A stretch of 17,233 nucleotides of DNA, from positions 1 through 17,233 of the forward strand of contig CAXTTL010000093.1 in assembly GCA_964247135.1 (NCBI GenBank). Reading direction: 5' to 3'. Under the pieces are notes generated by a model. The model was not told the origin of the DNA. It made no database searches and saw only the letters and a list, made by a program, of their open reading frames with translations. Of this stretch, positions 1 to 13,334 are shown piece by piece. A program made the translations under genes and the position numbers. Each line of letters begins with the position of its first letter. Within the stretch, counting starts at the first letter, position 1. Origin of the DNA: an uncultured Deinococcales bacterium (GTDB lineage Bacteria; Deinococcota; Deinococci; Deinococcales; JAAFIG01).

Positions 1-681
1 ATTACTAATCTCTCGGCTCGGTTTGAGAATGATGTGGTTGCGGTGATCGGACTCGGTGGCACGGGTTCATACCTTTTGGATTTCTTGGTCAAAACGCCAG
101 TTCGAGCGATTCGCGCCTTCGATTCGGACGCGTATCACGTTCACAATGCCTTCCGCTCGCCAGGCAGGCTCGAGGAAGCCGAATTCTGTAAAACCAAGGC
201 GGAAGTCTACCAAACCCGCTATGAAAACTTTCGTCACGGCTTGAGCATTGTGCCAGAATTCATTGACAGCTCAAGTGCTGAACATTTGAACGGTGTCACT
301 TTTGCTTTTGTCTGCGTCGATCAGGGTTCGGCTCGAAGCGAGATTTTTAAACTCCTGCTGGCACAAGGCATCCCCTTTATTGATGTGGGCATGGGTTTGG
401 ATCACAAAAACGAAGGACTGAAAGGGCAGTTGCGTGTCACCTATTTTTCGATTGAGGACGGGGCAAATATCCGTGATAAGGGCTATGCACAATTGCAGGA
501 CAGTGAAGACGACCTGTACCAAACCAACATCCAAATCAGTGAACTCAACGCCCTAAACGCCAGTCTGGCGATGATCAAATTCAAGAAGCTGCGCGGGTTT
601 TACAGCGATTCAGAACCACAGTACCACTCGATTTTTAACTTGCGCGATCAAAGCTTGATGGGGAACACCGATGAAAATTGA
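1..681 (+). CDS. ThiF/E1-like adenylyltransferase of a bacterial ubiquitin-like conjugation operon (5'-truncated by window edge; probably an E2-E1-type fusion)
   Basis: Frame is open from base 1 (ITNLSARFENDVVAVIGLGGTGS). Has the Rossmann GxGGxG motif, FDSD...HNAFRSPG (D-x-D...N-x-x-R), K-x-K, FVCVD and IDVGMG, and C-terminal Y-x-x-NIQISELNALNA...GFY. Overlaps the next gene by 11 nt. Confidence 0.85.
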   Translation: MTNLSARFENDVVAVIGLGGTGSYLLDFLVKTPVRAIRAFDSDAYHVHNAFRSPGRLEEAEFCKTKAEVYQTRYENFRHGLSIVPEFIDSSSAEHLNGVTFAFVCVDQGSARSEIFKLLLAQGIPFIDVGMGLDHKNEGLKGQLRVTYFSIEDGANIRDKGYAQLQDSEDDLYQTNIQISELNALNASLAMIKFKKLRGFYSDSEPQYHSIFNLRDQSLMGNTDEN

Positions 682-1075
682 GGTGGAGCACGTACACTTC
701 ATGCCAGCAACGTTACAGCCAGGTGTGCTGTACGTTTCAACAGAATTCCGAACAGCCGCGCATCTTTGCGCTTGCGGTTGCGGGGCGAAAATCAGAACAC
801 CACTCGGTCCAACCGAGTGGTTGCTCGAGGAAAGTAGAAATGGACCAACCTTGCGCCCCTCCATCGGAAACTGGCAGGAGGCATGTCAATCACATTACTG
901 GATCAGAAATGGTGAGATTCGCTGGTCAACTCAATGGACAAGCGAGGAGATTGCTGCCGGTCGTCAAATGGAACACGAACGTCGGGTGTTGTATTTTGAA
1001 CGCTCCCAAAATGCAAAAAAGGGTCGATTCTCGAAAATCAGCCGCTGGTTCAAAAAAGTGTTTCGATCACGATAA
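671..1075 (+). CDS. DUF6527-like Cys/His-rich protein (partner of ThiF/E1 in ubiquitin-like operons)
   Basis: P..L.PGVLYVS, AHLCACGCG, TPL...W, TLRPSIGNW...CQSHYWI.NG.I.W pattern. ATG overlaps the end of the E1 gene. Confidence 0.75.
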   Translation: MKIEVEHVHFMPATLQPGVLYVSTEFRTAAHLCACGCGAKIRTPLGPTEWLLEESRNGPTLRPSIGNWQEACQSHYWIRNGEIRWSTQWTSEEIAAGRQMEHERRVLYFERSQNAKKGRFSKISRWFKKVFRSR

Positions 1076-1693: not shown

Positions 1694-2914
1694 ATGCAAC
1701 CAACAACCCAATTCCAACCCAAAAATCAAGCTCGAGGTTCTTCCAACTCGAGCTTCGCGGTCGTGTGGATTGCGGATGTTCCGAGTTGGGCGGCGCACCG
1801 TACCGATCCGACTTTAGAGGGTCAAACGCTGGTCATCACGGCTGGTCGGCGGGTGGTCGGGTCGGATGCCAGCGCCCGAAGCTTCAAGGTGCGGGTGGGC
1901 GATTCGCTCGAGCGTGCCCGAGGTTTAGCTCCGAACGCGGTGTTTGTGCCGTTTGAAGCCTCGGTGGTGCAAACGGCTTGGGATGCCGCGTTGCACACCA
2001 TGAACGCCTTCACGCCTTGGCTCGAGTCGGGTCAGGTCGGCTTGGCGTTTTTGGCGGGTTTGAACCGGCTCGAGGTTGAAGCGCTGGCACTCGAGTTGCA
2101 GGCGCGGGTTGGACTTGCGCCGTCTCGGGGGTCTGCGTTGATGGCTGCCTTCAGTGCTCGAGATTCCGAGGTGCGCTTGGTGCAGCATGAGGCTGAGTTT
2201 CTTGGGGCTGCACCGACCTATTTGTTGCGGGGTGCGGGTTTGCCCGGTGAGATCATCGAACGGTTGCGGCTGTTTGGCTTGCACACCCTGGGTTCAATCG
2301 CGGCGCTCGAGGCACGCTACCTTCAAGCCCAGTTTGGTGCGTTTGCCCCGCGTTTGCTGGCGCTCTGCACGGGTTTGGACCGGCGCAGCGTTCCAGTTTT
2401 CACGCCCGCGCTCGAGGTCAGTGCCGGCTTTGAGTTTGAATTGCCCGCGATTGAACCGAACGTGCTGTATCCGGCTTTGGATTTTGTGCTCGAGCGTCTG
2501 GTGTTGAGGCTGCAAGATCGCCTCGCCTCGAGTGTGACGCTTGCCTTAAAAACCACCCTTGGTGTCTCGAGTGTGCGTCGATCATTGAAAGCCCCTTCAA
2601 ACGATCCCCGAACCTTGCGCCATGTGGCACTCGCGGCGCTCGAACGGGCGATGACTGGACTCGAGGTGCTGGCGTTGACCGTGACCGCCTCGGGTTTGAT
2701 GCGTCCAGTGCTGGTGCAAGATTCATTGTTTGCGGTGCTCGAGCGTCCCGCCGTGCGCGAGGTGGTGCGCCGCATTTACCAGGGATTTCCGGAGCGTCTG
2801 GGCAGGCTCGAGATCGTTCAACCACGATCCTTGCTGCCCGAACGTCGGTTTCGCTTTCGGGCGTTGACGGGCGAGGAAGTCGGTCAGCCCAAACGCAAGG
2901 GGCGACGCAAGTGA
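1694..2914 (+). CDS. imuY: Y-family polymerase-like protein ImuY/ImuB (N-terminal part), probably catalytically inactive
   Basis: Y-family fingers motif (SARSFKVRVGDSLERARGLAP), HhH-like LRLFGLHTLGSIAAL and beta-clamp motif QDSLF (2717-2731). The SIDE catalytic motif is replaced by ESGQVG. RBS GAGGTGG precedes the ATG. Sits upstream of dnaE2. Confidence 0.85.
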   Translation: MQPTTQFQPKNQARGSSNSSFAVVWIADVPSWAAHRTDPTLEGQTLVITAGRRVVGSDASARSFKVRVGDSLERARGLAPNAVFVPFEASVVQTAWDAALHTMNAFTPWLESGQVGLAFLAGLNRLEVEALALELQARVGLAPSRGSALMAAFSARDSEVRLVQHEAEFLGAAPTYLLRGAGLPGEIIERLRLFGLHTLGSIAALEARYLQAQFGAFAPRLLALCTGLDRRSVPVFTPALEVSAGFEFELPAIEPNVLYPALDFVLERLVLRLQDRLASSVTLALKTTLGVSSVRRSLKAPSNDPRTLRHVALAALERAMTGLEVLALTVTASGLMRPVLVQDSLFAVLERPAVREVVRRIYQGFPERLGRLEIVQPRSLLPERRFRFRALTGEEVGQPKRKGRRK

Positions 2915-3174
2915 AGGTGCTGCACATCCCAGAAAAATGCCTGGTGCTGCTCGAGCATTCAAGGCTCACGATGGTTCGGTGGCGCAACCGTCCGTGGTCG
3001 GTGATGGCGACGCTCGAGGTCTACGTCTGGCACGGCGAGTGGTGGACGACCCCCGACTTTGCTGGTGAACGCCGCGAGTACCACCTGCTCGCCACCAAAC
3101 GCGGTGAGATCGAAGTCTTTTTGCTCGAGCGTCCCGGTCAGACGGCTTGGTTTGTCTCGAGGTGGTTTGATTGA
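2911..3174 (+). CDS. Stand-alone ImuB C-terminal domain protein (ImuB-C / DUF6504-like)
   Basis: GEWW...RREYH...W.VSRWFD pattern typical of the ImuB C-terminus. GTGA overlap with imuY and TTGA overlap with dnaE2. Confidence 0.75.
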   Translation: MKVLHIPEKCLVLLEHSRLTMVRWRNRPWSVMATLEVYVWHGEWWTTPDFAGERREYHLLATKRGEIEVFLLERPGQTAWFVSRWFD

Positions 3175-6100
3175 GCGGCTTTGTCCATTTGCACTCGCGC
3201 AGTTATTTCAGTTTCAGGCGCGGGGCGAGCAGCCCCGAGGCATTGGTGGCGCGGGCGGTTGAACTGGATCAACCCGCCCTGGCGATCACCGATTGGATGA
3301 GTCTGGCTGGGGCGGTGCAGTTTCAACTCGCGGCTCGGGCGGCTGGGATTCACGCGGTCATCGGGGCAGAGGTGCTGCTCGAGCAGCATCCGGTGGTGCT
3401 GTTGTGCCAGAGCAATGCCGGTTATGCCGCGCTCTGCCGCTTGCTCTCAAAAGCGTTCAGCCATGAACACCCTCACCTCGAGTTTGTTGACCTCGAGGCA
3501 GATCATGGTGATTTGTTGATGTTGGCTGGAGGTCCGGACAGTTTTATTCGCTCTTGCCTCGAGCAGCACCAACCGCAGACCGCGCTCGAGTGGCTCGGGC
3601 GGTGCAGTGCCTTGATGGTGGATCGGGTGGTGGTTGAACTGTCCTCACACCGATTGCCTGGGGACTCGAGAATGCTCTCGAAACTCAGCAACCTGGCACG
3701 AACCGCGAGGTTGCCCGTCGCGGCGACCAACGCGGCTCGCTATGCGGTTCGGGAAGATTGGATTCTTCACGACCTGCTGACCTGCGCTCGGCTCGGCATC
3801 AGCGTGGCAGAGGCACACCCTGAGCGTCCAGACAACAGCGAAGCCTATTTGAAGACAGAAAGTGAGTTGAGATCGCTGATCCGTTCACCCCAAGCCTTTA
3901 CGACCCCGCTGAATCTGGCTCAGTCCTGTCAGATGGACTTGCTCCCCGGGGCGATCACCCCTCCAGGGGCGAACCTGCCCTTGGGCGTCCGTCCCGATGA
4001 GGCGCTCGAGGCGATGTGTCGCGCCGCCCTACCCAAACGCTACCCGAGTGCCAGGTTCACACTCGAGTACCGCCGTCGCGCCAGGGCGCAATTAACCCAC
4101 GAACTCGAGGTGATCGGGGCACTCGAGTTGAGCGAGTTTTTTTTGGTGGTCGCGGAAGTGGTGCAGGCGGCAAGGGATTTGGAGGTGCGGCTGGCAGGAC
4201 GGGGCAGCGCCGCGAACTCCATCGTCGCATACTTGTGTGGCGTGACCGGGGTTGATCCGCTCGAGCACAATCTGTTGTTTGAACGTTTTTTACACACCGG
4301 CAGGGCGGGCACGCCCGACATCGACGTTGATTTTCAATCGTCTCGCCGTCTCGAGGTGATCCACTGGCTCGAGCAGCGCTTTGCCGGACAGACCGCGATG
4401 ACCGCCAACGTCATGACCTACCGATTGCGTTCCGCCGTGCGAGATGCCGCCAAAGTGCTGGGGTTTCCGCTTGAGGTCATTAACCGAGCCAACAAGCGTT
4501 TGCCGCACGGCTCGAGTGCCAAACACGTGCGCCAACACCGTGAGGCGCTCGAGGATATTTTTGGCTCGAGTCCACTGTTTGAAAGCCTGCTCGGTTTGGT
4601 CGAACGGATGGCGGACGTGCCGAGGACGCTGGGACAGCATTCGGGCGGAATGCTCTTGACCCGAGATGCCCTGACCAACCACACGCCGATTCAAACCAGT
4701 GCCAACGGGGTCAAACAGGCGGTTTTCGCTAAAGACGATGTGGAGGCGATGGGACTGGTGAAATTTGACGTGTTGGGGTTGAGAAGCCTGGACGTGGTGC
4801 AAGGCAGTGTAGAGAAGCACCTGGCTGCCACCGGTGAACGGCTCGAGATTGATGATATCGCGCTCGACGATCCTCGGGTTTTTGCTTTGATTTGCTCGGG
4901 CGAAACACTGGCATTGTTTCAGATCGAGAGTCCTGGGCAGATGCACCTGATCGCCAAACACCAACCCAGGACATTTCACGCCCTGATCGCCCAGATCGCG
5001 CTCCTGCGTCCTGGTCCGATTGAGGGCGGGATGGTCAACACCTTCGTCAATCGCGCCTGTGGACTCGAGGCGGTACGGTTCGCCCACCCGAGTTTAGAGC
5101 CGATTCTGAGCGACACTTACGGGGTGATTCTGTACCAAGAACAGGTCTTGCAAGTCACACACCTCTTTGCGGGCATGAGCTACGGCGAATCGGACGATTA
5201 CCGCCGACTGATGAGCAAATGGCGCGACGGCGATCAAATGCTGGCGATGCGCGAACGCTTTGTCAGCAAAGCGCTCGAGACGCACCCCGACTGTTCGCTC
5301 GAGGTGGCTGAGGAGGTCTTCCGGCAGGTCAGCCACTTTGCTGGCTACGGTTTTCCCAGAAGCCACGCGGCGAGTTTTGCCAAAACGGTCTATCAAACCG
5401 CCTTTTTAAAGCTGTACCACCCGGCGGCATTTCTCGCCTCGGTGATGGAATACCACCCTGGGATGTACCCCAGGCAGAGTTTTGTGCTCGAGGCGCAGCG
5501 CTGCGGGGTGACGGTGCTCCAGCCAATCCTCGAGCGTTCCAGCCTGGGATTCACACTCGAGCGTCACGATCAACAATTGGCGATTCGGCTGCCGCTCGAG
5601 GGCATCAAAGGGATCGGTGTGGAGCAGGCTCGAGCCATCGTGCTCGAGCGCAGCGCCAGACCATTTTCGAGCTTGGAAGACTTGTATCGCCGGGTTCGCG
5701 TGCCAAAAGCCGTGCTGGCCAGCCTCGCCCAAGCGGGAGCGCTCGAGGGCTTTGGGTTAAGGCGGGAGGCGCTCTGGTCGCTCGGGGTGCTCGAGACACA
5801 ATTTGGACCTCCGGGCGGTGAAACGCCGTTGCTGCCCACGCCCGCCGCGACGGACTTGCCCGACCTCGAGTTGCTGACCAGTTTAGAGCTTGGAAACTGG
5901 GACGCGCGAACTTACAGTGCCTCGCTCGAGCATCCGATCTCGAGGGTAAGACCACGACTCGAGCTGGGTGGGGTCACGACAATCCGCGAGGCGAATCGAG
6001 CCAACGTGACCATCGCGGGTTTGGTGATCGCCAGACAACGACCACCGGCGGCGAAAGGTTTGGTGTTCTTGTATCTTGAGGATGAGACTGGGCGAATGCA

Positions 6101-6275
6101 GTGCGTGGCAAGCCCCCAGGTCTGGGAGCAACTTCAATCTGCGCTACGCGCCCCTGCCATTATCTTGGCGGGACAAATTCAACGGCGCGGGCAGTGGCGC
6201 GGCTTGATGATTCGGGACGCTCGAGCGCTCGAGGTCGGCTTGAAAGGGGGACGCTCGGGCTTGCCTCGAGCCTAA
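3171..6275 (+). CDS. dnaE2: Error-prone DNA polymerase III alpha subunit DnaE2 (ImuC)
   Basis: PHP HLHSRSYFSF and ALAITD; GRGSAANS; catalytic PDIDVDF; QHSGG; KFDVLGL; FQIESPGQ; YGFPRSHA; OB-fold RQRPPAAKGLVFLYLEDETG. 1034 aa, in imu context. Confidence 0.95.
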   Translation: MSGFVHLHSRSYFSFRRGASSPEALVARAVELDQPALAITDWMSLAGAVQFQLAARAAGIHAVIGAEVLLEQHPVVLLCQSNAGYAALCRLLSKAFSHEHPHLEFVDLEADHGDLLMLAGGPDSFIRSCLEQHQPQTALEWLGRCSALMVDRVVVELSSHRLPGDSRMLSKLSNLARTARLPVAATNAARYAVREDWILHDLLTCARLGISVAEAHPERPDNSEAYLKTESELRSLIRSPQAFTTPLNLAQSCQMDLLPGAITPPGANLPLGVRPDEALEAMCRAALPKRYPSARFTLEYRRRARAQLTHELEVIGALELSEFFLVVAEVVQAARDLEVRLAGRGSAANSIVAYLCGVTGVDPLEHNLLFERFLHTGRAGTPDIDVDFQSSRRLEVIHWLEQRFAGQTAMTANVMTYRLRSAVRDAAKVLGFPLEVINRANKRLPHGSSAKHVRQHREALEDIFGSSPLFESLLGLVERMADVPRTLGQHSGGMLLTRDALTNHTPIQTSANGVKQAVFAKDDVEAMGLVKFDVLGLRSLDVVQGSVEKHLAATGERLEIDDIALDDPRVFALICSGETLALFQIESPGQMHLIAKHQPRTFHALIAQIALLRPGPIEGGMVNTFVNRACGLEAVRFAHPSLEPILSDTYGVILYQEQVLQVTHLFAGMSYGESDDYRRLMSKWRDGDQMLAMRERFVSKALETHPDCSLEVAEEVFRQVSHFAGYGFPRSHAASFAKTVYQTAFLKLYHPAAFLASVMEYHPGMYPRQSFVLEAQRCGVTVLQPILERSSLGFTLERHDQQLAIRLPLEGIKGIGVEQARAIVLERSARPFSSLEDLYRRVRVPKAVLASLAQAGALEGFGLRREALWSLGVLETQFGPPGGETPLLPTPAATDLPDLELLTSLELGNWDARTYSASLEHPISRVRPRLELGGVTTIREANRANVTIAGLVIARQRPPAAKGLVFLYLEDETGRMQCVASPQVWEQLQSALRAPAIILAGQIQRRGQWRGLMIRDARALEVGLKGGRSGLPRA

Positions 6276-6279
6276 ACCC

Positions 6280-6852
6280 ATGTGCGGCAGTTACGGCAAT
6301 CAGCTCGAGGTTCAGGCGTACAGGGATTTGTTTGGTCTGAAGGTTATCCCAGACCTGCCAGAACGAACGCTGTTTAGACCCACGGATGTTGCACCGATCA
6401 TCACCAATCAAACGGGACTCGAGTTGCGCCTTGCCCGTTGGGGCTTTTCGCAACCGCCGAACGCCGGCAAAAAGCTGGCTTTGTTTAATGCTCGAGATGA
6501 CAAGCTGGTTTCGTCCCCAACCTGGCGCGAGGCGTTTCGCTCGAGGCGCTGCGTTGTTCCGATGAGTGAATTTCATGAGTTTTCAGGAGTCAAAGGGGCA
6601 AAAGTGCGTCATGCCTTCCAACCCAGTCACGCCCGAGCCTTCATGGTGGCGGGACTCTGGCAGGACGGGCATTTCTCGCTGATCACGACGCACGCCAACA
6701 GCACCGTCTCGAGCTATCACGACCGAATGCCAGTGATCCTCAAACCTCGAGACGTGGAAGTGTGGCTCGAGCCTGGTGTGGCTGTGGGGGAATTGTTGTG
6801 GTTGTGCAAACCGTTTTTGGCAAATCGAATCAGTGTTAGTTCGATGTTTTAA
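6280..6852 (+). CDS. SOS response-associated peptidase (SRAP/YedK/HMCES family abasic-site protein)
   Basis: N-terminal MCG (Cys2), RWG, FNAR, FRSRRCVVP..EFHEF, AGLW, ITT.AN, HDRMPVIL. Starts 4 nt after the dnaE2 stop. Confidence 0.9.
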   Translation: MCGSYGNQLEVQAYRDLFGLKVIPDLPERTLFRPTDVAPIITNQTGLELRLARWGFSQPPNAGKKLALFNARDDKLVSSPTWREAFRSRRCVVPMSEFHEFSGVKGAKVRHAFQPSHARAFMVAGLWQDGHFSLITTHANSTVSSYHDRMPVILKPRDVEVWLEPGVAVGELLWLCKPFLANRISVSSMF

Positions 6853-6954
6853 ACTGAGTTTTGAACTGAAGTATAAAATGTGAGCAAGTTGTAAAATCGT
6901 TAGCACTACCCCCAATACTATGGACTTCTTTCGCACGCTTTTGAGGTTTTAAAG

Positions 6955-8514
6955 TTAACTACGTACTGGACGTATAACAGCAGGGAGCATGTCAGGTTCG
7001 CCGTCCCAATTGACCAGGATTGGTGGAAGCCAGTGGAGCACTGCCTCACGCACTTGGGTATCTCGAGGTCCACGGTAGAAATGATGGTAATGTGCTCGCC
7101 TCACGTGGGGGATGACCGTGTGACCACTTGAGGCTTTAAGCCCATTAGCACCTGGGTCATCAAGGTTTTCTTTGGCTTTTCGCAGGGCTGCACCGAAACG
7201 GAATCCTGTGTACCAGGTTGTCGGTTCTGCGGGTGGTTTATCATGGCGAATTGGGGACTTTGGTGTTGGTGTTTTACGGGTTAAGTCTGGTTTTTCGGTT
7301 CGCAAATACAACAACACCGAGACAAATTGCGCCAAATCCTCTAGCTCTTCGTCGGCAATTTTTTGCAAAAAATCGGGTTCAAACTCGTCGCCAAAGCGCT
7401 GTTCGTGTTCGACCAACGTCTCAAAAATGGTTTGTCCCAGCGGAAATGTGTTCGGTTCGAGTTTTGGTCCATATTCCCAGTCATCGATGTCAAGCAACAA
7501 ACAGATGTTGCGCTCATCGGTTTCGATGTTATGGTCAAGAAAGGCAAAAAATCCATGCAGGGGATTTCGACGCTGAGTTTCTGCGTATTGGTTTGGTGTC
7601 GCAACGTAGATACACCAGGCGGGTAAAGTGTTGAGGGTATCAATTGGAAGATTGTCTGTAACTTCAGTGTTGAGCAGTGCCTCGAGCAGCGTCTCGTCAA
7701 ATTCAAAAATGTACTTTGACCAGCGCCAGGCGGCAAGTCCAGCCAGGACTTCAGCGTGCATACCGACATACATTTGGTAGCCCTCGGGCGGTTGTTTGGG
7801 ATCAACTTTGCCCCATAGGAATTCGCCGCCTGCGGCGCTTGGTACAAAACAAGATTCGTGCCACAGCGGGAGTGATTCGCCCCGCTCTGCTCTCACCTCA
7901 TCAAAGAATGTCCAGACATCCGAATACGCCGCACTCCATTGACGAAAGTGCGCCAAAGCGCGTGGGGTGTTGTTTAGAAATGCTTTTGGCACTGCTCGTT
8001 TGATGCGCAACACTCGACGCGGGATCGTTTCTGCTGTTGGTGCAGTGCGCAACGAACCGCGTTTGGCTGCGACTTGCAAGTGAATCAAAACCATCGGCAC
8101 TTTAAGGGTCCAGAGAAAAAGAGGATGATCATGCTGAATGTCACGTCCGTACAACAGTTTGCGCGGTTCATCTCGACATATCAGTATCGTGATTCTGAGG
8201 CTTTGAGTCTCGTGACGAACCTCAATTTCGCAGCTTGCCCAATCTCTGTCTTTGTCTGGTGATTCAAAGGTTTGATTTAGTTCCATTGCTCTCAATTGTG
8301 ACTCGAGTTCAGGACTGGACGCCGCAAGCGGTTCGCAACGTATCAGACCATAATGGCGTTCGCTGTCATCTTCAATTTGAATGGCTCGAGGCTTGGACAA
8401 GAAATCAAACGCCAGTTCGCCCTTTGGAATTTCATCATCGATTTGCATGAAGGTAAATCGGTCCATCACAAATATCGCGTCTTGGAAAAATTGCGAGTCG
8501 ATATTGTCTGGCAT
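6955..8514 (-). CDS. AcrVA2/FinQ-family protein with N-terminal extension (copy 1, ~519 aa)
   Basis: C-terminal ~340 aa has AAWRWSKYIFEFDE, LPAWCIYV, HGFFAFLD, LLYL...PD, GFRFGAALR, PHVRRAHYHHFYRG (7081-7110) and HWLPPILVN, in the order I recall for Moraxella AcrVA2. ATG 8514 is preceded by AGGGGG. The ORF extends to a TTG at 8748. Confidence 0.75.
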   Translation of the reverse strand: MPDNIDSQFFQDAIFVMDRFTFMQIDDEIPKGELAFDFLSKPRAIQIEDDSERHYGLIRCEPLAASSPELESQLRAMELNQTFESPDKDRDWASCEIEVRHETQSLRITILICRDEPRKLLYGRDIQHDHPLFLWTLKVPMVLIHLQVAAKRGSLRTAPTAETIPRRVLRIKRAVPKAFLNNTPRALAHFRQWSAAYSDVWTFFDEVRAERGESLPLWHESCFVPSAAGGEFLWGKVDPKQPPEGYQMYVGMHAEVLAGLAAWRWSKYIFEFDETLLEALLNTEVTDNLPIDTLNTLPAWCIYVATPNQYAETQRRNPLHGFFAFLDHNIETDERNICLLLDIDDWEYGPKLEPNTFPLGQTIFETLVEHEQRFGDEFEPDFLQKIADEELEDLAQFVSVLLYLRTEKPDLTRKTPTPKSPIRHDKPPAEPTTWYTGFRFGAALRKAKENLDDPGANGLKASSGHTVIPHVRRAHYHHFYRGPRDTQVREAVLHWLPPILVNWDGEPDMLPAVIRPVRS

Positions 8515-8578
8515 CCTGAACCCCCTGTTTGTCTCGAAGAATACGAAAGTTGATTCGGTTGTAAGTCTGTTAGGTGTA

Positions 8579-8587
8579 AGTTTACCA
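8579..8587 (-). promoter_or_regulatory. Possible extended -10 promoter for AcrVA2-like copy 1
   Basis: TGGTAAACT (TGn + TAAACT) on the minus strand, ~65 nt upstream of ATG 8514. Confidence 0.35.
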
Positions 8588-8829
8588 TCCGACACCACGA
8601 CAAGATCGATTTTTGCGACGAAGGACGATGTTGATGCAATCCATGAGGGGAATAGTTTTGTCTGGTGTGGGACGTATGAATTCTGCGAAACGCGTGCATA
8701 AGTGGTTGAAAACGTCCTAAATGCAGAATTCGTTTCTACTGTAGCCAATTCAAGTCTGGCGCTCCCACTTTCTGGGCCAAGCTTTGAAGTCGGTGCCAGC
8801 CGTTTGGCAATGAGTTTTGAATTTCAATA

Positions 8830-8866
8830 TTGCATAGATGTTACATTTAATGTACAATCTATGCAA
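8830..8866. promoter_or_regulatory. 37-bp inverted repeat operator overlapping the abiE promoter
   Basis: TTGCATAGATGTTACATT-T-AATGTACAATCTATGCAA, arms 16/18 identical. Contains + strand TTGCAT(8830-35)-N17-TACAAT(8853-58). AbiEi antitoxins are known to autorepress through promoter inverted repeats. Confidence 0.85.
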
Positions 8867-9481
8867 ATGAAGGCTCGAGAAACCAATAACACAACCAAAA
8901 CCCGAGCCGCCGAATTGTTCCAAGTTGCCGATCGGCAGGGCGGCTATTTCAGTGCAGGTCAAGCGCTTGCCCTCGGCTATTCGCGGCGTTTGCATCATTA
9001 CCATCGGCAGCAAGGTCACTGGCTCGAGGTGAATCGCGGTCTGTTCAGACTGCGCGATTATCCCGTCACGCCAGACGAAGAATTGGTGAAATTAAGCCTC
9101 TGGAGTCGTGATCTCAAAGGTCAACCGCAAGCGGTGATTTCACATGAAACGGCTTTAAGACTTTATGACTTAAGCGATTTGATGCCTTCAAAGATTCACC
9201 TGAGCGTCCCCAAGAACTTTAGGAAAACACCACCAGAAGGGGTTGTCTTGCATAAAACTGCTGTCGAGCCAAACGATGTCGAAGCTCGATCTGGATTTCG
9301 AGTCACCTCACCGATGCGAACCTTGATTGATGTCGCCGATATGCACATCAGTCCCGAACACCTTAAAACAGCCACCCAGCAAGCCCTTGAACGTGGTTTG
9401 GTGCGGCGCAAACGACTCGAGGCTGCCATAACCAAGTTCGGTACTTCGAACCGCCTTGAGCGGGTTTTGAGGAGCTTATGA
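8867..9481 (+). CDS. abiEi: Type IV toxin-antitoxin antitoxin AbiEi (wHTH transcriptional regulator)
   Basis: ADRQGGYFSAGQALALG...W..V.RGLFRL wHTH, VISHETAL..YDLSD..P..IHLSVP, VTSP.RTLID. Start placed at ATG 8867, just after the -10. ATGA overlap with abiEii. Confidence 0.9.
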   Translation: MKARETNNTTKTRAAELFQVADRQGGYFSAGQALALGYSRRLHHYHRQQGHWLEVNRGLFRLRDYPVTPDEELVKLSLWSRDLKGQPQAVISHETALRLYDLSDLMPSKIHLSVPKNFRKTPPEGVVLHKTAVEPNDVEARSGFRVTSPMRTLIDVADMHISPEHLKTATQQALERGLVRRKRLEAAITKFGTSNRLERVLRSL

Positions 9482-10323
9482 AATACAACACGGCTGGGGC
9501 GTTTCGCCAAGCGATTGATGCCAGATTGACCCGCCAAGCCAGCGAAGAGGGCATTGATCGGGTTCGTTTACAACGACGGCTCGCGTTTGAACGTTTTTTG
9601 GCCCGACTGTTTCATCATCACACCGACCGATGGGTGCTCAAAGGCGGATATGCGCTCGAGTTGCGACTCGGAGGACGGGCGAGAGCCACCAAGGACATGG
9701 ATTTTAACGCGCCATCAGGATCGGCTGAGGAATTGCTTGAGGAGTTGCGAGACGTGAGCGAGCTTGACTTGGGCGATTTCTTTCGCTTTTCAATCCTCAA
9801 ACCACCGCGAGGTGAGTTGCTTGGTCCACCCGAAGGTGGACACCGTTTTCGGGTCGAGACACGCCTTGACAGCACCCGCGTTTATGCGACTTTTTTAATT
9901 GATGTTGGACAAGGGGACGTGTTGTACAATCCTGTCGAAAACATCCCTGCTCGAGTGAACCTCGAGTTTGCGGAACTGGCTACGCCACCATTCCCGAGTT
10001 ATCCCTTACCTGAGCATTTTGCCGAAAAATTTCATGCCTATACCAGACCGCGCAGTGAGCGAACCCGAGTCAAAGACCTGGTCGATTTAACACTGATCAT
10101 CGAAGACCTTGAGTTGAAACCCAGCCCTGCCCTGGCGATGGTGATTGAAATGGTGTTTGAACGCTACAACACTCACCCATTGCCAAAAGCAAATCAGGTT
10201 GATCCGCCTCCTGAGTCTTGGCGTGAACCATACCGTGTGACGGCGGAGGAACTGGGATTGGGCACGACTGATGTTGTAAAAGCCTTAGAGCGGGTTCAAA
10301 GCTTTTTGACTCAATGCTGGTGA
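9478..10323 (+). CDS. abiEii: Type IV TA toxin AbiEii (nucleotidyltransferase, AbiEii/AbiGii family)
   Basis: ERFLARL, WVLKGGYALELR...RATKDMDF (GG...DxD), AEKFHA, RVKDLVDL. Confidence 0.92.
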   Translation: MKYNTAGAFRQAIDARLTRQASEEGIDRVRLQRRLAFERFLARLFHHHTDRWVLKGGYALELRLGGRARATKDMDFNAPSGSAEELLEELRDVSELDLGDFFRFSILKPPRGELLGPPEGGHRFRVETRLDSTRVYATFLIDVGQGDVLYNPVENIPARVNLEFAELATPPFPSYPLPEHFAEKFHAYTRPRSERTRVKDLVDLTLIIEDLELKPSPALAMVIEMVFERYNTHPLPKANQVDPPPESWREPYRVTAEELGLGTTDVVKALERVQSFLTQCW

Positions 10324-10373
10324 TCGTTTGTGCATTAAGCTTGAACGGTCAAAGCCAGTAAAAGGAGGCTTAA

Positions 10374-12239
10374 ATGAATAAGGTCAATCTTTTTTTTGAC
10401 GCAGCACTCACCAAACACGCCCCAGACGTGCCATTCGAGATGTTGCAAGAGGAGACATTGGTGCTCATTGCCGATGAGACGCTAATTCCTTTGGCTGAGA
10501 AAAAAGCGACCACCACGCGGTTTCCTGAACTCCCAACGGTCTTTTTTGATTATGACTTTGTTTGGATTGAGTTCCGTAAATCGTTTGCTGAACACGAACG
10601 TCAACGCCTTTTGCCTGGAATGTCTGGTGGCACTGGCGTCATGGGACAATATTATGACCTCGAGAACCTTGCCCTGCGAGAGACTTTAGAGCAATCCTGG
10701 CGACAACGTTACAGAATACCGGGTATTCCAAATCAAGCGACTGATGCGTTGGTTTTCAAAGTCTTTGGTGAAAAAAGACTTCAAGACAAAACCTTTGATC
10801 CGGCTGGAGCAGAATTCGGCGTTGGGCTTTTGCTTTTTGACGCGGAAGGTGAACCCTTCGGTGATGGATATTTCGGTGTGATTCCACCGCCTGAAAGTGA
10901 AATTGACCGTCAAAGTTTTTTGCGATCACGCCCAATGATGGGTGATTTTGTGATTCAAAGGGTGCAGTATTTTATCGCCATGCTTGAGCTTTTGGATAAC
11001 AACCACCTGAGCTTTGAAGAGGTTCTCGAATCCTCTCGAGGAACACCTTATTTTCACTTGTTGCCGACAGAATCTCAAAAGAAGTACGTTGAATACAGCG
11101 AGAAGATTGCAGGTCTATCGAAAACCAAAGTTGAACTTGGTCACGAAACCAACCTGCTGCCAGGTGAGATTCCTCGAGCACTTGGACACTTTCGCCGTGC
11201 GAGCACACTGTTCTCAACCATTTGGAGCAAAGCCCAAACTCTACGGAACGAATACAGCGCTAAATTTCCAGAGTTGGCTCGGGTTGTGTTTTTGCCAGCC
11301 GACTCTGGAATCAATTTGTTGCAACAATTGCGCTCAGTACCCAAATACGGCGATACCTTGCGCCTACCAACTCAGGATGAGAGACTAACGAATTCGTTGT
11401 CGCTGAGGGGCACACCTTGGCTTCGACGAGCCGACAAGGTTGATATTGAGGTTCAGGATGAGGCGGCAGCCTTGGTTGGACTGGCGGCGTGGCGATGGAC
11501 CAAAGGTATCTACCGCTTTGATGAAACCTTGGCGCTCGAGCTGCAAAAAACCGAAATTCGTGGGCAGCTACCGATCCAACTCATGGAACGTCTGCCCGAT
11601 TACTGCGTGTACATCGAAACGCCAAACATGGTTTTTGAAGAGATACCGCTGCACGGATTTTTTGCCTATCTCGATATTGACACCAGCGGTCAACGTTGGG
11701 TTGTGTTCTTGCTGGATACCAACCTGAATATGTACGGCGACATTCTCAAACCACGCTTTGTTCCACTCGGAGTCACCATCGAGGAGGGTGCATTTCTCGA
11801 GCCAGACCTTGATTTCTTGCCACTCGAGGTCAACGCGGTCGCAGAACTTTCACCATTGATTTCAATGCTGATGTACCTGACCAGCGACCAGCCCGATGTT
11901 TTAGAACTAAATCCGATTCCAGTCTCAAAGACCGCTTCAAACCTTGAGAAACCCAAAAGCGAACCTCGAGTTTGGGAGGTGGGCGTGCGTTTTGGGGCGG
12001 CGCTGCGTGGCGGGCTAGAAACACCAACGGCTGAAAATACTTCTGGATTGAGCGGCGTTCACGAACCGATCCGCCCGCACATGCGTCGGGCGCACTGGCA
12101 CGGGGTTTGGACTGGACCTCGTTCCGATCTGAGCAAACGCCAGCTTTCGCTGCGATGGTTTCCACCGATCCCAGTCAATTGGAATCCTGATGCTGAGGAT
12201 GATCAAATGCCAGCCGTGATCCATCAGGTCAACGATTGA
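10374..12239 (+). CDS. AcrVA2/FinQ-family protein with N-terminal extension (copy 2, 621 aa)
   Basis: RBS AAGGAGG. From aa ~266: PRALGHFR, AAWRWTKGIYRFDE, LPDYCVYIE, HGFFAYLD, MLMYL...PD, WEVGVRFGAALR, PHMRRAHWHGVWTG (12075-12101), RWFPPIPVN. Clearly paralogous to 6955..8514. Confidence 0.8.
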   Translation: MNKVNLFFDAALTKHAPDVPFEMLQEETLVLIADETLIPLAEKKATTTRFPELPTVFFDYDFVWIEFRKSFAEHERQRLLPGMSGGTGVMGQYYDLENLALRETLEQSWRQRYRIPGIPNQATDALVFKVFGEKRLQDKTFDPAGAEFGVGLLLFDAEGEPFGDGYFGVIPPPESEIDRQSFLRSRPMMGDFVIQRVQYFIAMLELLDNNHLSFEEVLESSRGTPYFHLLPTESQKKYVEYSEKIAGLSKTKVELGHETNLLPGEIPRALGHFRRASTLFSTIWSKAQTLRNEYSAKFPELARVVFLPADSGINLLQQLRSVPKYGDTLRLPTQDERLTNSLSLRGTPWLRRADKVDIEVQDEAAALVGLAAWRWTKGIYRFDETLALELQKTEIRGQLPIQLMERLPDYCVYIETPNMVFEEIPLHGFFAYLDIDTSGQRWVVFLLDTNLNMYGDILKPRFVPLGVTIEEGAFLEPDLDFLPLEVNAVAELSPLISMLMYLTSDQPDVLELNPIPVSKTASNLEKPKSEPRVWEVGVRFGAALRGGLETPTAENTSGLSGVHEPIRPHMRRAHWHGVWTGPRSDLSKRQLSLRWFPPIPVNWNPDAEDDQMPAVIHQVND

Positions 12240-12240
12240 A

Positions 12241-13095
12241 TCAGGGTCGAATTCGACGACCAAGTTTGCTGGCAGCGATTCGGCGATTGATCTTCGCCGC
12301 CCCGATTTGGACGAATTCGGCAACAAGCTGATGTAGTTTCGAGGATGTAATTTCAGCTCGAGCGGCGCATTGTACACAGTAACCAACGGCGCGAATTTCG
12401 AGTCTGACGTGCTCAAATGCCTCGATTGAATTTTGGGTGTTTTGAAGCTCGAGCCACCAGCCATGCAATGGGGTTTGCTGAAATTCTCGTTCGAAGAGTT
12501 TCCAAAGCAGTTCGAGCAACTTGTGATCCAGGTCTTCAAAATTTATGGCACTGATGGCTTCGGTTTGCGTTTGGAGCACGGCTGGGGCATTGGTGAATGA
12601 CTTTTCGGGCACTACGGAGTTTGCGGTTGGCGCAATCGCTATAAACGTGGTTTTGTTGGTTGACGGCACGGCTTTCCAAACCCGTACCGATGACGGTTTG
12701 CTTGGGCGTTTTTGGCGTTTGCGCTTGGTTACGCGCACCACTTGTGGCGGCGGATCAGGATGGTCTTGCAGCTCGGCTATGTTGAGAAGTTGAGCTTTGA
12801 GTTTTTGCTGGGCGATAAGAAGTTTGTCGCGCTGTCGGTAAATTTGATTGAGGTAACGAAAGCATTTGAGTGCCTTGTCCAGATCGCTGACCTCAAGGTA
12901 CGCATCGATTTTTTGGATGTGCCGATCTATTGAGGTTGTTAGCTGCTGCTCTGCACGGTTAAAAACCTCAATTTTGTCGGAGGCGCGTTCAAGATCAGCG
13001 ATGTATTCAATACTTTTTGCATGGAGGTCAGGGTCGTTGACGACATGCCCAATCAAATTAACCTTAAGCCGGCTCGAGATTTGGAGATGACCCAT
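12241..13095 (-). CDS. Hypothetical protein (~284 aa; helical N-terminal region, basic/low-complexity linker, C-terminal domain)
   Basis: Long ORF (extends to 13224). ATG 13095 has AGGAG 7 nt upstream. Converges on copy 2 with a 1-nt gap. Confidence 0.6.
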   Translation of the reverse strand: MGHLQISSRLKVNLIGHVVNDPDLHAKSIEYIADLERASDKIEVFNRAEQQLTTSIDRHIQKIDAYLEVSDLDKALKCFRYLNQIYRQRDKLLIAQQKLKAQLLNIAELQDHPDPPPQVVRVTKRKRQKRPSKPSSVRVWKAVPSTNKTTFIAIAPTANSVVPEKSFTNAPAVLQTQTEAISAINFEDLDHKLLELLWKLFEREFQQTPLHGWWLELQNTQNSIEAFEHVRLEIRAVGYCVQCAARAEITSSKLHQLVAEFVQIGAAKINRRIAASKLGRRIRP

Positions 13096-13153
13096 CGAAA
13101 GACTCCTGACCAGCAAACTCTGAAATGGTATTTTGAAGTTGTTTTGCGGTCTG

Positions 13154-13182
13154 ATTCTACAACATTGGGCAATTTGTGACAC
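13154..13182 (-). promoter_or_regulatory. Putative sigma70 promoter for the 12241..13095 gene
   Basis: Minus strand GTGTCA-N17-TAGAAT. Confidence 0.45.
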
Positions 13183-13334
13183 GTTTTCAAGGGGTGGTGC
13201 GTTTTGTGTCATACTTGATGGCAAATGTAAAAGCCCGTGGCAATATTTGTGTTTTGGTTACTCACGATGCGTAATTTTGTTGCTTTAAACCATGGATTTT
13301 GATTGCCCGCGTCTTTTGAGAATATGGGGTTGGT

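Follow-up and report, generated by a model that had tools for sequence, protein, structure and literature searches.

Two AcrVA2/FinQ-like paralogues with dissimilar N-terminal extensions on a contig of an uncultured Deinococcales bacterium

The two genes and their common module

The gene examined here, copy 1, encodes an AcrVA2/FinQ-like protein and lies, together with a paralogue (copy 2), on a contig of an uncultured Deinococcales bacterium (GenBank assembly GCA_964247135.1, contig CAXTTL010000093.1). The window, i.e., the stretch of DNA analysed, is this whole contig of 17,233 bp; the genome is 84% complete and consists of 386 contigs. A sequence-only reading of positions 7600-8514, which correspond to codons 1-305 of the copy 1 gene, had proposed that an AcrVA2-like C-terminal part is preceded in copy 1 by a cryptic, highly diverged duplicate of the AcrVA2 core, and that the front part of copy 2 has the same origin. 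We consider it likely that copy 1 is instead a member of the AcrVA2/FinQ family (PF26125, phrog_6160) in which a complete module of ~336 residues follows a translated, lineage-specific extension of 183 residues, without detectable relation to the module, to the extension of copy 2 or to the other proteins searched. The features of the two genes, with the evidence for each, are as follows.

6955..8514, minus strand: copy 1 (P0001), 519 residues plus stop (translation of the open reading frame)
7966..8514, minus strand: orphan N-terminal extension of copy 1 (N1), residues 1-183 (codon log-likelihood ratio, LLR; no family match)
6958..7965, minus strand: complete AcrVA2/FinQ-like module of copy 1, residues 184-519 (phmmer, phrog_6160, Foldseek, family hidden Markov model, HMM)
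7696..7734, minus strand: AAWRW...FD core motif with W263, R264 and D273, holding the equivalents of AcrVA2 W79 and D89 (phmmer alignment to 7ci1)
7090..7107, minus strand: HVRRAH with H470, R472 and H475, the equivalents of AcrVA2 H286, R288 and H291 (phmmer alignment to 7ci1)
8521..8525, minus strand: GGGGG Shine-Dalgarno-like run, 6 nt upstream of the ATG at 8514 (direct reading of the sequence)
10374..12239, plus strand: copy 2 (P0002), 621 residues (translation; phmmer against 7ci1; phrog_6160)
10374-11171, plus strand: orphan N-terminal extension of copy 2 (N2), residues 1-266 (no homologue found; gene-like codon usage)
11172-12236, plus strand: AcrVA2-like module of copy 2 (BLASTP, phmmer, phrog_6160)

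Residues 184-519 of copy 1 are a genuine AcrVA2/FinQ family module by sequence, fold and key residues, and on this point the sequence-only reading was right. Searches with phmmer match AcrVA2 of a Moraxella bovoculi prophage (PDB identifiers 7CI1 and 7CI2) to copy 1 with an E-value of 1e-13 and to copy 2 with 3.9e-15 (both for 7ci1). The profile phrog_6160 yields a single match in each protein, with an E-value of 2.3e-43 over residues 197-503 of copy 1 (profile positions 19-318 of 322) and of 1.9e-36 in copy 2, and a family HMM derived from 25 homologues with a single module covers the copy 1 module from position 4 to 339 of 340 with an E-value of 1e-79. A word search initiated with copy 1 returned 27 matches including itself, every one of them bearing PF26125 in the precomputed annotation, and the 26 others, of 311-419 residues, extend over no more than 65% of the query. 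Scans of both copies against NCBIfam and a copy of Pfam lacking PF26125 gave no match, and neither did PADLOC.

The AlphaFold2 model of copy 1, computed with a 27-sequence alignment, is confident over residues ~180-450, where the predicted local distance difference test score (pLDDT) is mostly 77-97. Foldseek superimposes the module on AcrVA2 (7ci1_A) with an E-value of 8.5e-17 and a template modelling score of 0.68 (target-normalised) over 345 columns, at ~20% identity in the structural alignment. The only matches at an E-value of 0.001 or less are 7ci1_A, 7ci2_A and 7ci1_B, and no other fold appears below 0.05. Within the 27-sequence alignment, W263, R264, H470, R472, R473, H475 and H477 are invariant and D273 is kept in at least 90% of the sequences, so the likeness to AcrVA2 extends over sequence, fold and all five of its residues tested by mutagenesis (W79, D89, H286, R288 and H291), each of which has a counterpart in copy 1; these equivalences assume an offset of one residue, which we infer, between the PDB chain and the published numbering. 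According to Marino et al. (bioRxiv 10.1101/2022.11.29.518452), W79 and D89 matter for AcrVA2 function and H286, R288 and H291 do so above all. AcrVA2 differs from copy 1 in lacking the 183 additional N-terminal residues.

Copy 1 belongs to one family with FinQ of IncI/F-like plasmids and, more widely, with the PF26125/phrog_6160 proteins, with the difference that typical members are 311-419 residues long and that the extension of copy 1 is present in none of those examined. A literature search on AcrVA2-like proteins, FinQ and PF26125 found Marino et al. alone to be relevant among the papers listed, and the terms 'AcrVA2-like' and 'PF26125' were absent from these papers.

The modules of the two copies are readily aligned by BLASTP (residues 184-517 of P0001 with 267-619 of P0002, 133 identities in 369 columns, E-value 9e-60), with no further high-scoring segment pair below an E-value of 20. 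Copy 2 retains the key residues as well, with AAWRW at residue 371 and PHMRRAHWHG at residue 568. The front parts behave differently: alignment scores between N1 and N2 lie at or below those of shuffled sequences in ten combinations of gap penalty and alignment mode. A MAFFT alignment with 27% identity between N1 and N2 was therefore rejected as a gap artefact. Thus, as far as sequence comparison can tell, the copies have a common AcrVA2-like part and unrelated front parts, in line with the earlier remark that their N-terminal domains are dissimilar and their C-terminal domains conserved.

The N-terminal extension of copy 1

Residues 1-183 of copy 1 are really coding. With a codon model trained on the genome, they score an LLR of 0.116 per codon, close to the 0.126 of residues 184-519, and the five other frames of the same region score -0.05 to -0.42. 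The frame of copy 1 stays open on its 5' side as far as a TTG at 8748, and the intervening stretch 8515-8748 is non-coding by the same model (LLR -0.166 per codon). No Shine-Dalgarno-like sequence was seen before the internal ATG (residue 141) or GTG (residue 167). The module-like codon score, the GGGGG run ahead of the ATG at 8514 and the lack of a comparable internal start site together lead us to conclude that residues 1-183 are translated as part of copy 1, and the two-part architecture of this protein is real. N2, of 262-266 residues, is likewise gene-like (codon LLR 0.188).

N1 is composed of an acidic, probably beta-rich part of ~115 residues and a basic tail of ~68 residues. Residues 1-115 have an isoelectric point of 4.4 and a net charge of -13, and residues 116-183 an isoelectric point of 11.6 and a net charge of +9. 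AlphaFold2 models residues 1-170 of the full-length protein at pLDDT 25-51 and residues 1-183 alone at a mean of 32.5, and both runs draw, at low confidence, a helix at residues 68-75 and a hairpin at residues 92-113.

N1 is an orphan in every collection searched. It has no match in Pfam, NCBIfam or PHROG, and phmmer against 1.84e9 representative proteins returned itself and one repeat protein only, neither of them a credible relative. P0029, a protein of 2778 residues that we take to be AHNAK-like, aligned in eight stretches (E-value 6.6e-6) and was rejected as an artefact of its highly repetitive, K/P/D/G-rich sequence. When 201 genomes of the order were searched with copy 1, no match reached below query residue 155, and among the family members on 628 plasmid and 38 phage records none covers 80% of the copy 1 query. 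Tblastn of N1 and N2 against their own 84%-complete genome finds, below an E-value of 0.01, each extension matching itself alone; a region search with N2 again retrieved only itself among 3101 candidates, and a search for longer forms (735-2095 residues) with the family alignment found none.

The proposed duplication was traced to particular strings, and these are indeed located in N1 where they had been placed: AIFVMD at residue 13, AIQIE at 44, HYGL at 54, ITILIC at 108 and VPMVLIHL at 139. The resemblance read into them does not exceed chance. The alignment of residues 13-48 with the GIYRFD...CVYIE motif of copy 2 has six identities in 36 positions, a two-residue gap and a BLOSUM62 score of 16, and the best local score of the 38-residue core motif anywhere in N1, 21, is equalled by 791 of 1000 shuffled versions of N1. 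Looser gap penalties, or use of the whole core of either copy, likewise leave N1 at chance level. Of the motif spacing that was said to be kept, the first interval holds and the other three do not: successive distances between the five motifs are 31, 10, 54 and 31 residues in N1, against 33, 15, 17 and 53 in the core of copy 2 and 33, 18, 18 and 61 in that of copy 1, the two true cores agreeing with each other. The invariant core motifs W-R...D (AAWR..GIY.FD) and LPxW (LP.W.VY.E) were sought in residues 1-183 and are absent, and N1 has 2 Trp in its 183 residues against 10-14 in each family module.

More sensitive comparisons agree. In Smith-Waterman alignments with the AcrVA2-like parts of copy 1 (C1) and copy 2 (C2), the score of N1 is reached by 165 of 300 shuffles with C1 and by 78 of 300 with C2, and that of N2 by 70 of 300 with C2 and 242 of 300 with C1; in the positive control, C1 against C2, none of 50 shuffles reaches the score. 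The family HMM gives N1 -1.6 bits, a value that 17 of 200 shuffles attain, and N2 -3.0 bits (59 of 200), where shuffles without a reported score were assigned -20; translating this DNA in wrong frames yields equally high scores. Hhalign against the family assigns a probability of 0.24% to N1 and 0.02% to N2; with a profile of 127 sequences, the probabilities are 0.3% and 0.1%, and the scores of 15.6 and 12.9 compare with 14.0 +/- 2.4 for shuffles. The best match of N1 in the HMM and hhalign comparisons, which is not significant, places residues 88-110 on the core hairpin, in a register other than the one first proposed. Thus, the hidden duplication is without support at the level of sequence, for the front part of copy 2 no less than for that of copy 1.

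Explanations for the extension and its possible role

The duplication can be stated in its strongest form as follows: residues 1-183 of copy 1 and 1-266 of copy 2 would have arisen by tandem duplication of the peptide-binding core of AcrVA2, followed by extreme divergence and loss of the C-terminal HxRRxHWH domain, so that each protein would have two binding cores. We regard this as improbable, given the chance-level alignment, motif, HMM and hhalign scores, the wrong-frame controls that reach the HMM score of N1, the single motif interval retained out of four, the shifted register of the hairpin match, the scarcity of Trp and the absence of the invariant W, R, D and LP-W positions. Several observations nevertheless weigh against our preferred reading of N1 as an unrelated extension. 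The hairpin drawn by AlphaFold2 at residues 92-113 coincides with the non-significant HMM and hhalign match on the core hairpin, and the family-HMM score of N1, while not significant, is not central either, lying in the top 8.5% of shuffles. In the ESM Atlas, N1 and N2 each have clusters partly bearing PF26125 (of 215-552 residues) within their top three neighbours, with feature scores of 0.80 and 0.79 for N1 (PF26125 on 16% and 26% of the cluster members) and of 0.83 and 0.82 for N2 (14% and 26%), and PF26125 is common to all ten best family-carrying matches. These neighbours may reflect very distant kinship between the extensions and the AcrVA2/FinQ family and are the sole hint, a weak one, of duplication: by the tool's own statement, a third of shuffled proteins attain a feature score of 0.8 and the measure is uncalibrated for parts of proteins, and since the same two clusters are retrieved by the mutually unrelated N1 and N2, a hub effect fits as well as kinship. 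Also, integrase, relaxase and phage genes are all missing from the window, which makes the mobile-element context of the two copies indirect.

It is similarly doubtful that N1 is a young, functionless read-through, arisen from an upstream in-frame ATG or a deletion fusing two genes, with the 336-residue module as the active protein and residues 1-183 as largely disordered ballast. The lack of homologues in any search, the low pLDDT across N1 and the prevalence of family members without an extension (the 26 matches of 311-419 residues and most of the 80 loci described below) are what such an origin would predict. However, the codon score of N1 is that of a gene and not that of the adjacent open stretch, 183 codons have stayed free of stops in a region of 50% G+C, a good ribosome-binding site lies at the ATG at 8514 with none at the internal starts, and the paralogue has independently a gene-like extension of its own. 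We return to the reading of N1 as a translated, lineage-specific addition to a complete module. It is most likely an accessory add-on that either makes one more contact, be it with the target, the ribosome or RNA, or regulates the module, and is probably not a second core.

To our knowledge, AcrVA2 is the sole bacterial protein so far known for gene silencing through recognition of a nascent polypeptide. By analogy, the module of copy 1 would act as AcrVA2 does in Marino et al. (bioRxiv 10.1101/2022.11.29.518452): the middle domain with W263 and D273 would bind a short peptide of one target protein during its translation, and the C-terminal domain with H470, R472 and H475 would then bring about loss of the mRNA of this target. 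The target is probably a protein other than Cas12a. According to that preprint, most AcrVA2 family members reside in hosts without Cas12a; a search of the 84%-complete genome with TIGR04330 (Cas12a) gave no match, and was equally silent in all 14 control genomes.

The sequence-only reading had further divided the protein into a conserved effector half and a fast-evolving specificity half. The target-binding residues of AcrVA2 given in Marino et al. (bioRxiv 10.1101/2022.11.29.518452), W79 together with E98, D129 and D195 at the crystal interface, are located within the conserved module, as indicated also in a review (PMC13131331). The proposed split is therefore too simple: the module would already have its binding and effector parts, and residues 1-183 would come in addition. 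The preprint describes the family as conserved at the C-terminus and divergent near the N-terminus. Furthermore, 'fast-evolving' is indistinguishable from 'independently acquired' here, because neither front part has a homologue from which a ratio of nonsynonymous to synonymous substitution rates could be derived.

A more far-reaching proposal, which we think unlikely yet worth stating, is that each orphan front part serves as an 'arming' module, specific to the lineage and open to exchange, on a silencer of the AcrVA2 type. Such modules could be remote duplicates of the peptide-binding core, at which the language-model neighbours hint, or new domains, and would give each paralogue a second recognition site of its own. 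If so, one element would silence two different proteins of the host or of rival elements during their translation. As it stands, copy 1 is an ordinary member of its family whose extension is unexplained. Extended members, along with differently extended paralogues placed side by side, lend themselves to studying whether target choice is altered by added domains.

Family distribution and genomic setting

Large, real N-terminal extensions are rare in this family and differ from one another. The AcrVA2/FinQ family is present in 13 of 201 genomes of the order, in none of 18 from the same organism family, and in 22 of 364 genomes of the phylum, where real N-terminal extensions are confined to the two genes of the window and one other pair. 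This pair (L026, G169:C32 and L027, G007:C25), from two genomes of the same order, has a common extension of ~130-190 residues with 48% mutual identity, which is unrelated to N1, N2 and the core by BLAST, HMM and hhalign. A 'WLEFD.P' run in it was considered as a core motif and rejected, with a hhalign probability of 0.2% and with 51 of 200 shuffles attaining its HMM score. Of 80 loci from further phyla, most are without an extension and five are preceded by an open frame of at least 120 residues; of the five, one (L098) and perhaps another (L115) look real, judged by composition, and neither resembles N1 or N2. L098, on a contig of a Myxococcota metagenome-assembled genome, has a protein-like extension of ~200 residues that is also unlike the family profile.

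The Deinococcales genome that holds the window has a third AcrVA2-like gene on another contig (L038, G000:C109:7985-8533, plus strand). Its open frame of 237 residues retains the W...GIY..D and LPQWCLYVE core (HMM positions 8-184) without the C-terminal HxRRxHWH domain, of which no remnant was found downstream in the other frames.

The wider PF26125 family is found on plasmids and phages (628 plasmid records, 563 of them conjugative, and 38 phage records); for example, the plasmids of Deinococcus proteolyticus and Oceanithermus profundus have a family gene beside repA or near ardC. In contrast, the contig of copy 1 is without plasmid or phage hallmark genes, and the gene adjoins an AbiE pair. 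The gene order in the first half of the window is a fragment of a ThiF-type E1 protein, DUF6527, ImuB, DnaE2, a SRAP peptidase and copy 1 (minus strand), after which come AbiEi, AbiEii, copy 2 (plus strand), an orphan gene of 327 residues (minus strand), DUF3006, a metallo-beta-lactamase-fold protein and Excalibur-domain proteins. The pair between the two copies is as follows.

8867..10323, plus strand: AbiEi-AbiEii toxin-antitoxin pair, the AbiEi start being approximate (Pfam; PADLOC, AbiEi E-value 1.9e-65, AbiEii E-value 2.2e-79)

Copy 2 starts 51 bp past the stop of AbiEii on the same strand. An AbiE pair between or adjoining AcrVA2-like genes was not seen in 117 other family loci, and none of 13 window proteins matched their flanks at an E-value of 1e-4 or less. 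The stretch 6900-13300 has a G+C content of 49.4%, compared with 52.7% for the genome (standard deviation among contigs 1.6%). The hexamer CTCGAG, which occurs 33,925 times in the genome (once per 150 bp) and 103 times in the contig, is found 20 times in this stretch against an expected ~42.6, a count that ranks at the 2nd percentile when 596 windows of 6.4 kb are compared. Two differently extended paralogues flanking AbiE, a lower G+C content and fewer CTCGAG words together fit imported accessory DNA, a later acquisition than the remainder of the genome.

The orphan gene at 12241-13224 (minus strand) converges on copy 2, their stop codons lying 1 bp apart; it is gene-like (codon LLR 0.110) and has no match in Pfam, PHROG or PADLOC. 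The imuB-dnaE2-SRAP cassette at 1694-6852 (plus strand) has a G+C content of 60% against the 52.7% of the genome and the highest CTCGAG density of the window: its three genes contain 57 copies against ~33 expected, and for this word the window's initial 6.4 kb rank at the 98th percentile of genome windows. At positions 1-1075 (plus strand), the ThiF-type E1-like protein, truncated where the contig ends, has weak PADLOC 'E1-E2' matches (best E-value 4.6e-7), and the DUF6527 gene (E-value 4.9e-25) overlaps it; the two may form a pair for ubiquitin-like conjugation or for defence.
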